IMG/VR virus record: IMGVR_UViG_3300017700_000616
Coordinates: 1 to 37,796 of that record
Length of the DNA stretch: 37,796 nt
Strand: one strand, 5' to 3'
From: a virus
Taxonomy: Duplodnaviria; Caudoviricetes
In this document: positions 2,920 to 33,449 of the stretch, in pieces
Layout: each line of letters opens with the position of its first letter
Position numbering within the stretch: the first letter of the stretch is position 1
The notes under the pieces: generated by a model
The model's database searches: none
What the model saw: only the letters and a program-made list of their open reading frames with translations
What the model was told of the DNA's origin: nothing
Position numbers and translations under genes: made by a program

Positions 2920-3543
2920 ATGGCAACGCTAGGCGATCTGAAAACCCGCATCAAAGCGGAAACGAACCGGGATGATCTGGACGATGAGCTGGCAGCGGCT
3001 TTCGTGGAGGTCATTCAGCGTGCCATTGTCTATTTTGAAAGCCAGCGCTTTACGTTCAACGAAGCGCGCATTGTCCAGACGGCGACGGGTGAATATTCCC
3101 CCCTTCCCGAAGGCCTGAAGTTCATCGACACACTTAGCGTTCAGGTGGGGAGCAACCGCTATCCGCTGCGGATGCAGTCCTATGAGGTGATCGAGGAATG
3201 GAACGGCTACGCGACCTCTGCGGGCCAGCCCACGGACTTCTCCGTCTCGGATGGACAGGTCAGGCTCTACCCGATCCCCAACACCAGCTACCCTCTGATC
3301 TTCCTTGGCGTGCGCGAAGTTACGCCAGCCTTGGACTATGATGACGATAGCTCGACTAACGCTTGGCTGGTGCAGGGTTACGATCTGATCGCGTCGCGCG
3401 TTCGGTATCTGCTGTACCGGGACTACTTCCGTGACGATGCAGGAGCCTCTACGGCGTTTGGGGCGCAGCAGGAGGCGTTGTCCGATCTTCGCAATGAGGC
3501 GAGCCTTCAAATCGGCACAGGGAGGATGCGTGGGTCATGGTGA
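2920..3543 (+). CDS. Head-tail adaptor (tail tubular protein A-like)
   Basis: MATLGDLKTRI start and GQPTDF...VRLYPIP motif; size and position typical of podovirus adaptors. Confidence 0.75.
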   Translation: MATLGDLKTRIKAETNRDDLDDELAAAFVEVIQRAIVYFESQRFTFNEARIVQTATGEYSPLPEGLKFIDTLSVQVGSNRYPLRMQSYEVIEEWNGYATSAGQPTDFSVSDGQVRLYPIPNTSYPLIFLGVREVTPALDYDDDSSTNAWLVQGYDLIASRVRYLLYRDYFRDDAGASTAFGAQQEALSDLRNEASLQIGTGRMRGSW

Positions 3544-3764
3544 CTTCCAATCCAATCCTGATAGAGCCTGAAACCCCCGCATGGTGGAAGCGGGCCGCGC
3601 TTTCGATCAACACGGCCTTTGTTCAAGCCCAGCGCCCGATCCTTCTTGCCGGATATGCTACGGCGGACCTTCCTGACCCGGCTCAATGGGCGGGATGTTT
3701 TGCTCGCGACCTGACCCTTAACCAGCCTGTTTACAGCGACGGAGCGACGTGGAATGCCCTCTAG
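3537..3764 (+). CDS. Small virion/tail-associated protein
   Basis: Overlaps both neighbours; PVYSDGATW motif seen in fibre-associated domains. Confidence 0.55.
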   Translation: MVTSNPILIEPETPAWWKRAALSINTAFVQAQRPILLAGYATADLPDPAQWAGCFARDLTLNQPVYSDGATWNAL

Positions 3765-5112
3765 CCCTACGCCCCTCCTGAATATCGAACAGCAAGCCGC
3801 TGGCGAAAACCTGAACGTATGGGGGCAACCGCACCTCAACGACGCCTTGGCGCGCCTCACGGAGGCTATTGCGGGCGCGACGACGGTCAGCAGCTATCCG
3901 ATTACGCTGTCCTCGACCAACTACGTCGTAAACCAAGCCCGCAACATGATTTTGCTCTGCACTGGAGCCGGTGGCGTCATCACCATTCCAGCTCAGAGCA
4001 AGCTTTACATCGTCCGCAACACGTCGAGCGGCAACGTCACCCTGACCACGGGTAGTGGGACGACGGCTGTCGTGTCCTCGGGAGACATTCTCCCGGTAAT
4101 CTGCGACGGCGTTAACTGCCTGACCAGCAAGCGACAGGATTTCCAGAACAGCATCGTTCGGAACCTCGCTAATGGCGTCAACGCCCAAGACGCGGTTAAC
4201 AAGCAGCAGCTTGACGCTACTCTGGCGGCGGCTCAGGCCTATACGGATGCGACCGCGTTTGCGTCGGCGTCCCTTCCCGGACAGGCGGGTCAAGCGGGCA
4301 AGTTTCTGACTACGGACGGCACGGCAACTTCGTGGACGAACGTCTTCCCTGCCGGAACCTTGGACTACATGCTGTTCAGCAATGGCGGGACTTCGGTTTC
4401 GTGGGGCTCGCCGTCTCAAATACGAGCCAAACTGTCCTTGGCGGGGGCGGCTCTGCTGAATGTCGGCACCGCTGCTGGCACTGTGGCTGCGGGTGATGAT
4501 TCACGGATTGTAAACGCCGCCCAGCTTTCCGGCGCTGTTTATACGGGGGCTATTCAAGCCCCGGCCATCACCTCTCCTGCGTTCTCGGGCTCCTTCAGTG
4601 GGCCGGTAACAGGCAACGCCTCCAGCGCTACCCGGTGGACCACGCCTCGCGACCTAAGCCTGACGGGAGACGCAACGGCTACCCTGCCCGCAATCGACGG
4701 ACAAGCCAGCGTGTCGGCGGCGATTACGCTTGCCAATACGGGAGTGTCGGCAGGGACCTACGGCAACTTCACGGTTGATGCGAAAGGCCGTGTGACTGCG
4801 GCTTCGGTTGCGCCCTATATTCGGGCGGCTGGGCTGTTCACGGGGACGACGGGTGCGGCTCTGGGAACGCCTGTGAATATCACCTGCGTCCGAAACGCCA
4901 TCGGGCTCTACACGCTGACCTTCGGCTCGCCGCTGCCTAATGCGAACTACATTCTCAGCGTCTTCTGCGAAAAGACCTCGGGGGCTCCGTTCTTCCAAGC
5001 CTTTGTGGCCTCTCGTTCGACTTCCTCTATCATCATCAACACGGTCTTGCTGTCAGGCGGTGTCGTGACCAGCGATGACCCGGACCGCTTCGGGGTGTCG
5101 GTGATCCTGTGA
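3754..5112 (+). CDS. Tail fibre protein
   Basis: G/A/T/S-rich 452 aa; GENLNVWG N-terminus, DAVNKQQLD, GKFLTTDG, VGTAAGTVAAGDDSRI and VDAKGRVTAA fibre motifs. Confidence 0.75.
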   Translation: MPSSPTPLLNIEQQAAGENLNVWGQPHLNDALARLTEAIAGATTVSSYPITLSSTNYVVNQARNMILLCTGAGGVITIPAQSKLYIVRNTSSGNVTLTTGSGTTAVVSSGDILPVICDGVNCLTSKRQDFQNSIVRNLANGVNAQDAVNKQQLDATLAAAQAYTDATAFASASLPGQAGQAGKFLTTDGTATSWTNVFPAGTLDYMLFSNGGTSVSWGSPSQIRAKLSLAGAALLNVGTAAGTVAAGDDSRIVNAAQLSGAVYTGAIQAPAITSPAFSGSFSGPVTGNASSATRWTTPRDLSLTGDATATLPAIDGQASVSAAITLANTGVSAGTYGNFTVDAKGRVTAASVAPYIRAAGLFTGTTGAALGTPVNITCVRNAIGLYTLTFGSPLPNANYILSVFCEKTSGAPFFQAFVASRSTSSIIINTVLLSGGVVTSDDPDRFGVSVIL

Positions 5113-22137: not shown

Positions 22138-22311
22138 TTAAATCTCCCAAATCTTTTTCCAGCGACGACCGATTTTTTGTTCGATCACGACAGGTCCTTC
22201 AGATTGGTACTGATGGGCGTATCGTTTCGTCTCGTTGAACACGAAGCTCAGGTCGTTTCCTGAAACCTGAAAGACGGTCATGCCGTCCTGTTTTCCTCTA
22301 GCTTGATACAT
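22138..22311 (-). CDS. 57-aa hypothetical protein (not in ORF track)
   Basis: MYQARGKQDGMTVFQVSGNDLSFVFNETKRYAHQYQSEGPVVIEQKIGRRWKKIWEI; purine-rich upstream sequence. Confidence 0.55.
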   Translation of the reverse strand: MYQARGKQDGMTVFQVSGNDLSFVFNETKRYAHQYQSEGPVVIEQKIGRRWKKIWEI

Positions 22312-22333
22312 CCTCTATCCCTTTTTCCTACCT

Positions 22334-22448
22334 ACAAGCTCAATTGAGAGATTGGTGTGACCAGACATAGGAAGCCCTCCCGCACAAATTGGTCGAAACC
22401 AAACTTGCGAGGGGCGTTCCAGTCTGGGGCCTAACAAGCTCAACCGAG
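22334..22448 (-). promoter_or_regulatory. Long UUCG hairpin flanked by direct repeats
   Basis: ACAAGCTCAAnnGAG at 22334 and 22434; irregular hairpin 22361-22427 between them. Confidence 0.5.
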
Positions 22449-22449
22449 C

Positions 22450-23135
22450 CGACTGGCGCTTACAGACAGCTACGTGACAGGAAAGGTCCGCAGCCTAGGC
22501 AACTACTTCAGGAGGCTTTCCCCTCCATCGACCACCCTCTCGCCTCTAGGACCGGGTTTGGCTTGGTCGTCCCACAGTAGCCATGCACCCGCGCCGCTGC
22601 CGTTAACCGACCGGTTCATCAGGAGCCTAAAGGGGTTGTCAGTAAGATCGCGGCGCGCTATCTGTAATGAGCGTTACGCAATCGGTTCTGGCAAACCGAT
22701 TTAGGAGGGGTCGCCGTTGTTCAATCCGGCGGCCCCTTCGCCGTTATGGATGCACCTAGACGCGCAGAAGGTCAAGCCCGATGAAAACGACGGACATGGA
22801 TCATCTGAACCGGATGATGGCAAAGCTAAAGCTGATGGCCGCTCAGAGGAAGGCGCTGGATCGTCTGGACCGCTGTTGTCACGGAGGCGTCGTGTCCTAC
22901 AGGCTTCCTCTGGTCTTCCGCTTGGACTGCGCTAACGGGCGGTTCAATGCCTAGACGGCAGGATCGTCAAGGGGTAGATTGGTTGGGCTGTGCGGCGTCT
23001 CGATCACGAGGGTGGAACCCCTAAAGACCCGCTACCTCGACGGCGCTCCGGCTTCGGCTGGGTAAGAGATAGAATCAAAGCGCTCGCGGCTAGGATATGG
23101 AACCCTGAGGGCAGGTTGGCTTTGCCCCGCACAGC
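22450..23135 (+). ncRNA. Putative large structured non-coding RNA / replication-origin element
   Basis: About 700 nt with no convincing CDS in a gene-dense genome; more than 10 helices, with wobble pairs reading G-U on the + strand; cUUCGg and GCAA loops. Confidence 0.55.
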
Positions 23136-23168
23136 AAAAACCCCACCAATCCCGAAGGACTGATGGGG
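23136..23168 (-). terminator. Intrinsic terminator after the replication gene
   Basis: Minus strand ccccatcagtcc-TTCG-ggattggtgggg-TTTTT. Confidence 0.85.
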
Positions 23169-23222
23169 CTGCCAAAATCGACTCATTTCGGCCCCTCCAG
23201 CCGTGGCTGGATTAAGGGAACC

Positions 23223-23738
23223 CTACTCCCTCCGACGTATCCCGGCAACTCCCGCCGCCTTGAGCGCTCCCTTTTGCTCGACAAGCTTCCTCATGGCATA
23301 CTCTGTAGCTGGCGTTATGAAGCCGTCTTCATGGAATGTGCAGGGGTCTAGGTATGAACGTACGAACGGCTCCCCGATGGCTTCAAGAAGTTTTTGACGG
23401 ATCGAATCTGGCGCGACAGTGCGCGCGGCTTCATTCGCAGGGTCTGGGCTGGCAGAAAGCCAGTGATCGTAACGCTCCCCGTTCAGCCACACCGAAAGAC
23501 CCGGATAGCCACACGTAGGTTCCTTCTCCTCACGGAGATACCGCTTAAGAGCCGCTAGGAGAGCCGCTGAGCCCACCTTCTTGGCGTGCCGCTCCCATAG
23601 CTTGCGGGTCTTGTCAGAACCGTCCCCGCGCTTCTTCATCATGCCAGCACGACAAGCCCAGCCGTCATCGAACGTGGAGGGCTCTCTGACAGGTAGCTTT
23701 ACAACATTGTCCATCTGAACTAGCTTCAATTGCGCCAC
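23223..23738 (-). CDS. Replication protein (initiator C-terminal-like domain plus DnaA N-terminal-like domain)
   Basis: GGAGGAGGAG SD and GTG start; FDDGW...KLW...LSVWLNGERYD motif; IRQKLLEAIGEPFVRSYLDP resembles DnaA domain I. Confidence 0.6.
   Translation of the reverse strand: MAQLKLVQMDNVVKLPVREPSTFDDGWACRAGMMKKRGDGSDKTRKLWERHAKKVGSAALLAALKRYLREEKEPTCGYPGLSVWLNGERYDHWLSASPDPANEAARTVAPDSIRQKLLEAIGEPFVRSYLDPCTFHEDGFITPATEYAMRKLVEQKGALKAAGVAGIRRRE
23698..23726 (+). promoter_or_regulatory. Antisense sigma70-type promoter inside the replication gene
   Basis: TTTACA-N17-TAGCTT. Confidence 0.6.
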
Positions 23739-32742: not shown

Positions 32743-33030
32743 ATGACCAACAAGAACGAAAAGCCGAAGCAGTCCGAAAAAGACAAGGCAGAAGCCAACC
32801 GCATCCAGCCCGACAAGCCCCTTGGTGAGGTCGTGCATCAGGAAGAGGAAGACTTCTACGCCAAGCAGCGCCGCGAGTCCCCGGACGGCATGACTGCTGC
32901 CGAACGTGATCAGCACCAGAAGGCCGCTCCCGGCGCTCTGGAGCAAACCAGCCCGGACGGGGAAAAGCTGGGCGAAGACACTGACGAAGCCAACCCGGTT
33001 GGTGGTAAGCAGCAATCCGGCGGACGCTAA
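32743..33030 (+). CDS. Highly hydrophilic, probably disordered protein
   Basis: GGAG SD, strong codon bias, own terminator. Confidence 0.7.
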   Translation: MTNKNEKPKQSEKDKAEANRIQPDKPLGEVVHQEEEDFYAKQRRESPDGMTAAERDQHQKAAPGALEQTSPDGEKLGEDTDEANPVGGKQQSGGR

Positions 33031-33049
33031 CTCAACGCCAGACTAACGG

Positions 33050-33082
33050 AACCCTCGATGCCTTGCGGTGTCGGGGGTTTCT
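33050..33082 (+). terminator. Terminator hairpin ending the rightward early arm
   Basis: aaccctcgatgcc-TTGC-ggtgtcgggggtt followed by TCT. Confidence 0.65.
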
Positions 33083-33090
33083 GCTATCTT
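33063..33090 (+). promoter_or_regulatory. Putative promoter overlapping the terminator (start of late region)
   Basis: TTGCGG-N16-TATCTT preceded by GC, upstream of CAGGAG SD. Confidence 0.45.
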
Positions 33091-33117
33091 GAAGCCAACG
33101 CAAACAGGAGTCCTCCC

Positions 33118-33237
33118 ATGAAGGGCAAGATGCACAACGCCAGCGCTGGTAAGGTCAAGTCGATCAAGCCTCCGCGCAACCCGCTCGCTCCGATCAAAGG
33201 CACCGCGCCTGCCGTGTCGAGCAAGAAGGGCAACTGA
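33118..33237 (+). CDS. 39-aa lysine-rich peptide (not in ORF track)
   Basis: CAGGAG SD; MKGKMHNASAGKVKSIKPPRNPLAPIKGTAPAVSSKKGN; GC3-biased codons. Confidence 0.65.
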   Translation: MKGKMHNASAGKVKSIKPPRNPLAPIKGTAPAVSSKKGN

Positions 33238-33449
33238 ATGCCGCCGGTCTTGAAGGTTGTATCAGGGCTTAGCGCTGAAGAGGTCCTTAGCCTCACAGGA
33301 TCGGCGAAGTTTCTGGATGCCAGCCCGCAAACCGTTCTCCTCTGGCATATCCTGAGGCCTTGACGGAACGCCCCAAGGAGGTCTAACCATAAAACCGAAC
33401 CTCACGCAGAGCCACGGCAATAAGCGGAGCGTTCAAACCAAGGTGCTAA

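Follow-up and report, generated by a model that had tools for sequence, protein, structure and literature searches.

The trait that defines ColE1-type replication origins is an upstream segment of RNA able to pair with the template near the origin. In ColE1, two runs of six G residues lie at 928 and 1175, 247 nt apart, and the first reportedly pairs with the template of the second (work of Masukata and Tomizawa), seeding the hybrid. As described in parts of PMC5043065 and PMC5703827, this origin uses a long folded transcript with an antisense RNA over its 5' end and needs no encoded primase; within the former, the trigger of the persistent hybrid is called speculative. Structured motifs of 220 to 350 nt (ARRPOF, GEBRO, and PAGEV) occur in plasmid replication regions, with a mechanism given as unknown in the relevant part of PMC5737381, the main text of which does not name the Betaproteobacteria-1 motif. 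That motif is held in Rfam (RF02932) as an sRNA with no function given. In the phage-inducible islands (PICIs), the primase-replicase is a core part, and variants with this part missing or unidentified are known from sections of PMC6092414 and PMC10085698.

Here, we analyze a window of 37,796 nt, the whole stretch of DNA under study, which represents a complete virus record (37.8 kb) bearing terminal repeats. Judging from sequence patterns, we consider it probable that a minus-strand RNA in a long gap of this phage is an R-loop replication origin, similar in its working to ColE1 RNA II/RNA I and unrelated to them in sequence. A PHROGs scan of 59 ORFs identified portal, capsid, terminase, Erf, exonuclease, SSB, NinB, and RusA and returned no primase, helicase, or polymerase match; a Pfam scan of 17 of the unnamed ORFs likewise matched none of the three. 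Both scans are consistent with the preliminary description, which had portrayed a phage without these genes. The features of the locus are listed below in window coordinates.

22312-22333, minus strand: purine- and A+T-rich strip after X2, also holding the ribosome-binding site of ORF 22311
22334-22348, minus strand: repeat copy X2, predicted start site of the RNA-DNA hybrid, 100 bp after X1
22334-22627, minus strand: conserved structured RNA core of ~290 nt with three predicted pseudoknots (37-sequence alignment)
22361-22427, minus strand: long 3' hairpin bringing X1 next to X2 (helices 9-10 of the alignment)
22434-22448, minus strand: repeat copy X1 (15 nt), predicted guide for the template strand at X2
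22506-22621, minus strand: part resembling Rfam Betaproteobacteria-1 (RF02932; 18.4 bits, E 0.7)
22628-22742, minus strand: 5' leader of the long RNA, predicted antisense target, conserved among relatives
22636-22664, plus strand: predicted antisense promoter TTGTCA-17-TATCTG (simple promoter score)
22671-22742, plus strand: predicted RNA I-like antisense RNA of ~70 nt, folding into two strong hairpins (z -4.10 on plus)
22747-22775, minus strand: predicted sigma70-type promoter of the long RNA, with -35 TTGACC at 22775-22770 and a poor -10 at 22752-22747
22755-22949, no strand: accessory 195-bp insert between two CTAGAC-N9-GTCAAG dyad copies, holding ORF 22781-22954
22952-22980, plus strand: TAGACG-17-TAGATT, a predicted promoter that overlaps a divergent one on the minus strand
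22987-23135, plus strand: possible separate small RNA of ~150 nt with paired ends (closing stem), candidate product of the plus-strand promoter at 22952-22980
23139-23170, minus strand: intrinsic terminator of the upstream gene
23223-23738, minus strand: gene for an initiator-like protein of 171 aa, resembling the C-terminal part of phage replication initiators

The preliminary description had read 22450-23135 as one structured plus-strand RNA of about 700 nt. All 10 of its helix pairs and both tetraloop hairpins are present in the sequence, their non-Watson-Crick pairs read G-T on the plus strand, and the convergent terminator proposed at the end of the element was found (23139-23170, minus strand). 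The long gap is also real, but it starts earlier than claimed, at about 22312. A single GOLLD- or ROOL-like RNA on the plus strand nevertheless strikes us as hardly credible, despite helices that exist and read G-U on that strand: the whole 686 nt fold at z -1.00 on plus and -0.38 on minus (20 shuffles each), no better than shuffled sequence, 195 bp are missing in relatives, and no Rfam model of GOLLD, ROOL, OLE, or other large RNAs matched. Covariation among homologues is strong, but it resides in a core on the other strand, reaching 22334, and not in the helices listed at 22480-22657. Homologues split the gap into four parts (core, leader hairpins, 195-bp insert, and 149-nt domain), and 22450-23135 includes only the 5' 180 nt of the conserved minus-strand core. 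The suggested ColE1-like RNA origin survives as the best-supported reading, but would act through a minus-strand transcript of ~410 nt, from about 22742 to 22334. Rfam at the gathering score gave 0 matches in the window, and a tRNA and tmRNA scan gave none.

The insert is optional, since contigs of two other sequencing runs (X16 and X24) skip its 195 bp between the promoter-dyad copies, joining 22754 directly to 22950. It is also absent from locus L005, folds at z -0.52 and +0.38 on its two strands, and holds a 57-aa ORF (22781-22954) with no homologue among the collected loci other than window copies. The overlapping divergent promoter layout beside it recurs in two loci, the L001 and L005 contigs. 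The 149-nt domain at 22987-23135 folds at chance level (z +0.24 on plus); counterparts lie at about 4586-4716 in L005, where the closing stem is kept and the inner sequence is not, and at about 4640-4750 in L001.

The core alignment (A2, 37 sequences, made with MAFFT) comprises 10 helices with 45 pairs in all; three of the helices cross. Paired cells amount to 87.0%, against 66.2% in shuffled and 39-46% in slid controls, and double changes to 343 versus 112, counts that rest both on this alignment and on helices picked from it. In minus-strand orientation, we observe 220 G-U cells and 31 C-A cells, a ratio that the choice of helices favors; the strand assignment follows from the concurrence of the Rfam match, the promoter, and the direction of the alpA genes. 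No reading frame is conserved, with core lengths distributed 20/23/19 over all frames and a stop-free frame in at most 8 of 62 members. By covariation and frame analysis, the core is a predicted noncoding RNA gene on the minus strand, with a knotted fold. Its 3' module (22334-22448) folds at z -4.26 on minus. Loci L005 and L002 match 22309-22741, in full or for the greater part, with 70-75% identity and have no counterpart of 22760-22960. Contigs of other sequencing runs carry 22309-22628 with 4 differences in 320 positions and 22461-22699 with 3 in 239, compared with about 1 in 10 positions differing in the neighboring gene, and may stem from different organisms.

Three pseudoknots, many invariant unpaired bases, and a guide-like repeat that adjoins fixed GGCTCC and CACCA motifs might equally be expected of a ribozyme, in which the knotted 5' domain would cut or join the strand at X2 with X1 as internal guide; variants would nick DNA for rolling-circle replication or process themselves at the conserved CCA. 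However, the search patterns themselves imposed part of this invariance, so that the invariance of core motifs is not evidence, and no Rfam ribozyme family matched. Subtype B (L001 and L279-L281), moreover, has its 5'-most domain replaced and retains the middle and 3' parts, and we regard a ribozyme as unlikely.

The 3' hairpin is flanked by a repeat of 7-10 nt that varies between elements and matches within each. For scoring, the 8 nt after GGCTCCR were compared with the 8 nt that follow CACCA, an anchor whose placement made no use of the repeat, in a set reduced from 163 loci with a profile hit to 106 with both anchors and 62 nonredundant members. X1/X2 identity averages 6.7/8 within elements and 3.4/8 across them, with 47 different 7-mers in the 62 members. 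Six members score 2 or less, at least three of them (the window, L157, and L169) from a misplaced anchor; in the window, the two 15-nt copies show two differences, both G versus A. When X1 is set against the complement of X2, the mismatches in 56 members, taken irrespective of relatedness, comprise 17 that are wobble compatible, 2 of the reverse kind, and 5 transversions. Those with G first and A second number 16 against 1 in reverse, the G/A cases occur in 12 different repeat sequences, and the base before X is G/A in 48. Because mismatches run in this direction, X1 suits the template strand of X2. Within the RNA, no family-wide partner of X1 was found (6.75 versus 6.71; X1:X2 duplex -5.3 versus -4.7 kcal/mol), and in the window X1 may pair with X2 inside the RNA, X2 being palindromic there. 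The template strand at X2 is the simplest candidate partner of X1, and the ColE1-type trait of an upstream segment able to pair with the template near the origin appears to be present, as a covarying repeat with wobble bias. All members of subtype B carry one identical repeat sequence.

Slipped-strand pairing also tolerates G-T and predicts the same asymmetry, and the element might therefore act as DNA, by X1/X2 slippage between strands, as a single-strand origin, or through protein-binding repeats; part of PMC5737381 allows that motifs of the plasmid type may work as ssDNA. G-U-rich covarying helices, GNRA-type loops, pseudoknots, a promoter, and an antisense unit all favor RNA, and 47 repeat variants are hard to reconcile with a binding protein that many islands seem to be without, which makes a DNA element quite unlikely in our estimate. 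On average over the family, A+T content rises in the 40 nt that follow X2 (0.56 versus 0.44; higher in 39/42), as does purine content (0.61 versus 0.52; n = 42), and the A+T strip may partly reflect ribosome-binding sites. Cumulative GC skew makes no sharp turn at X2; it tracks gene direction and does not mark the element.

The predicted long-RNA promoter has its -35 box 163 nt ahead of the core, the same distance as for the TTGACG-16-TAAGGT sites of L005 and L026; a consensus promoter scan found no site, the long-RNA promoter included. The leader between promoter and core is conserved in L005, L002, L014, L026, L001, L003, and L279-L281. On the opposite strand, the highest-scoring antisense -35 begins 22-27 nt ahead of the core in 7/7 sequences (the window and its six closest relatives). 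Among 26 viral loci, 10 have an antisense promoter at p <= 0.05 (the window stands at 0.055), and among 14 islands none does. The antisense region folds at z -4.10 on plus and -3.29 on minus, plus being the better strand in 8 of 11 leaders. The plus-strand folding that had been put forward for the entire region thus holds for the leader hairpins (22680-22739) but not for the conserved core, and the predicted antisense RNA over the leader would explain the G-U pairs read on the plus strand there.

Antitermination and immunity RNAs typically sit after alpA or in early operons. The same position, an antisense promoter over the leader, and a ribosome-binding site that often follows X2 would suit a regulatory leader (antitermination, attenuation, or a switch like P4 CI or P1 C4), in which the hybrid or repeat governs read-through and not replication. 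We find this improbable, since the downstream genes are unrelated or oppositely oriented. The C4 and CI RNAs carry repeats complementary to the RNA; here, no complement of X1 and no repeats complementary to the RNA's loops were found, and Rfam gave no match to the C4 family or to CI.

The RNA origin that we favor has more than 100 homologues in phages, metagenomes, and alphaproteobacterial islands. Pattern scans yielded 58 viral loci, about half of which proved on reading to be coding DNA matched by chance, together with 26 genome loci whose titles are mostly alphaproteobacterial and 92 metagenome loci, including one copy of the window and one of the L005 contig. The A2 profile recovers 24/26 genome loci, many of which are themselves in A2, and 88/92 metagenome loci. 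The cultured Paracoccus phage Shpa carries the RNA at about 33000-33300, where it is annotated as two hypothetical genes. At 33048-33443 of KR072689.1, gp47 and gp48 overlap the RNA; gp47 lies entirely within it and is probably not a protein. With blastn, the window element gave only chance matches in phages and none in plasmids, and other family members found only Shpa among phages; four plasmid searches with the window and other members returned no small plasmid, only chance matches and one 1.5-Mb Burkholderia replicon.

The RF02932 gathering score of 49.4 bits is not reached by the window (18.4), L167 (38.4), or L144 (34.5), and the true members that the same pattern picked up (L097, L099, L225, L262, and L276) score 96-104 bits. 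Core motifs of RF02932 and its first two helices (P1 and P2) are present in the window element on the same strand. The first 60 positions of the A2 profile match L225, L099, L097, and L276 at E values of 3e-8 to 3e-3, compared with 0/17 reversed controls. On reading, these four continue past the Rfam model into a repeat-hairpin-repeat 3' module, whereas L262 does not clearly do so. The window RNA differs in its extra helices and in its ~290 nt against a 120-nt model that stops before the repeats, and it is accordingly filed as a putative diverged, longer relative of RF02932, not a formal member. A search of 151 genomes of one phylum for RF02932 gave no match, nor did its controls. Divergent copies in Bacteroidota-titled loci L159, L165, and L221 adjoin a restriction-modification system, with a G-rich first and an A-rich second repeat. 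In the literature within reach of the search, which left most subscription journals outside, neither the full-length RNA nor its repeat or replication context is described; the X1/X2 repeat, variable between elements, was likewise not found in print.

Relatives of the 23223-23738 product are encoded on six viral contigs. In the six phages with this short initiator, L006 retains only a truncated element, and L003 and L004 hold other sequences in the slot. These are G+C-rich noncoding stretches at about 4900-5240 in L003 and 4620-4980 in L004, without an Rfam match, and may be further RNA origins. In L003, the leader is retained and a hairpin is flanked by a 9-of-10 direct repeat; for L004, comparison did not confirm a suspected resemblance between the slot and the ColE1 origin.

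In the window, the 171-aa protein matches phrog_270 at E 0.0039, aligned to positions 188-266 of the 383-position profile, a C-terminal part. Of 39 aligned homologues, 15 match this profile at E <= 0.01 (best 1.3e-5), and the family measures mostly 150-190 aa among 97 matches within the searched range of 94-300 aa; the failure to find longer forms is weak evidence. Structure comparison (VIA) placed DnaA domain I in its top three rows, at Z 5.0-6.1, below the tool's reliable level, and Foldseek gave nothing at E <= 0.001 (top row DciA, E 0.61). Two domains are predicted, the C-terminal one weakly like DnaA domain I (Z 6.1) and the N-terminal one weakly like the SPP1 loader G39P (Z 4.5). From these models, a helicase recruiter without a DNA-binding domain is possible.

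Across 27 viral loci, 101 neighboring ORFs were scanned (100 of 143 listed and one added). An initiator, primosomal, primase, or helicase match occurs among the scanned neighbors in 6/27 loci, SSB or annealing proteins in 2 further loci, portal or terminase in 6, and other genes or none in the rest. In L097, the order is CII, methylase, an unknown gene, the RNA, an 85-aa O-like C-terminal piece, and a P-like loader. Initiator proteins of L144, L005, and L110 match C-terminal profile parts only, whereas that of L138 matches the N-terminal part and is hence not shortened. Helicase and primase genes adjoin the RNA in L076 and Shpa; since both encode a primase, the RNA does not in every case stand in for one. 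In L138, the gene after the RNA is an RtcB RNA ligase (906-2138), and in L097 a polynucleotide kinase lies near the RNA (3456-3905).

In bacteria, we examined 21/26 loci (five near-duplicates were dropped) and 105/129 ORFs. The RNA follows a recombinase or AlpA/HTH_17 gene in 12/21 loci, precedes a terminase in 2/21, and does neither in 7/21; neither a mobile nor a replication context is apparent for these seven or for the Burkholderia copy L276. Ten loci were extended to 19 kb, with 77/157 ORFs scanned there and others in the earlier scan; the scans took in ORFs of at least 95 aa, minus one 117-aa ORF in L273, and several proteins of 160-225 aa stayed unnamed. Five elements of 8-12 kb are bounded by tRNA att repeats, two of them with capsid and terminase genes. 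No primase, Rep, or relaxase match occurs among the scanned ORFs of the ten extended islands, and tblastn with six primase/initiator queries on the ten stretches found none, in a search insensitive enough to miss the window's own initiator-like gene. The elements at 3656-13162 of L271 and 1320-12085 of L272 are tRNA integrated, 9.5-10.8 kb long, and carry integrase, capsid, terminase, and the RNA, with no primase detected; they could be capsid-forming satellites that primase-based finders could overlook. L267, L268, L270, and L265 are minimal int-alpA-RNA islands with restriction-modification, Abi, toxin-antitoxin, and PRTase-type defense cargo.

Given the observed covariation, repeat, mismatch bias, and context, transcription, hybrid formation, priming, and antisense control at the proposed origin would proceed as follows. 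Host RNA polymerase would make the ~410-nt minus-strand RNA (about 22742 to 22334), and the 3' hairpin would keep X1 beside the polymerase while X2 is traversed. X1 could then pair with the template strand at X2 over about 10 bp, G-T wobbles being tolerated, and seed a persistent RNA-DNA hybrid across the A+T/purine strip. Cleavage of this hybrid would yield a primer for host Pol I, and/or a helicase would load on the displaced strand, with help from the short initiator-like protein. In the window's phage group, the ~70-nt antisense RNA over the leader would dampen the process, as RNA I does in ColE1; in satellites, AlpA-driven transcription would turn the RNA on.

Tentatively, and with less than even confidence, we propose a widespread class of RNA initiators, in which a freely variable built-in guide finds and opens its own origin, taking over, in phages, from the DNA-binding half of lambda O-type initiators and, in satellites, from the entire primase-replicase; the knotted core may cut the primer or nick DNA. 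Such a guide could be reprogrammed, and RF02932 would gain a function. If the origin reading is true, many alphaproteobacterial phages and satellites seemingly without a replication gene replicate from an unannotated RNA, and satellite finders that require a primase overlook such elements. Dozens of natural matched guide/target variants make the hybrid-seeding step directly testable, and an orphan Rfam family is extended to its likely full length.

Compared with known systems, short direct repeats around a structured stretch also recall DRT2-type RNAs, in which repeats serve template jumping by the reverse transcriptase. No reverse transcriptase was found among the scanned neighbors (small ORFs were scanned in part), and such a jump, in which the copied X1 would pair with X2, is disfavored by the G/A bias. 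ARRPOF, GEBRO, and PAGEV differ in hosts and element types and gave no Rfam match. The RNA occupies the slot of the PICI and cf-PICI pri-rep-ori, after int and alpA and before terminase, and that of lambda O-P, between cII and a P-like loader; where those modules have the primase/Rep gene or the DNA-binding end of O, the RNA stands instead. Like the ColE1 origin, the locus combines a long folded RNA, a predicted antisense RNA on its 5' end, and a repeat able to grip the template. It differs in showing no sequence similarity (blastn and nhmmer) and no Rfam RNAI match, in a repeat that is a variable 7-10-mer ~88 nt apart and not a pair of distant G6 runs, and in residing in phages and integrated satellites, not small plasmids. 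The parallel layout, together with this lack of sequence similarity, suggests that the element likely works like the ColE1 origin without being a member of its family.
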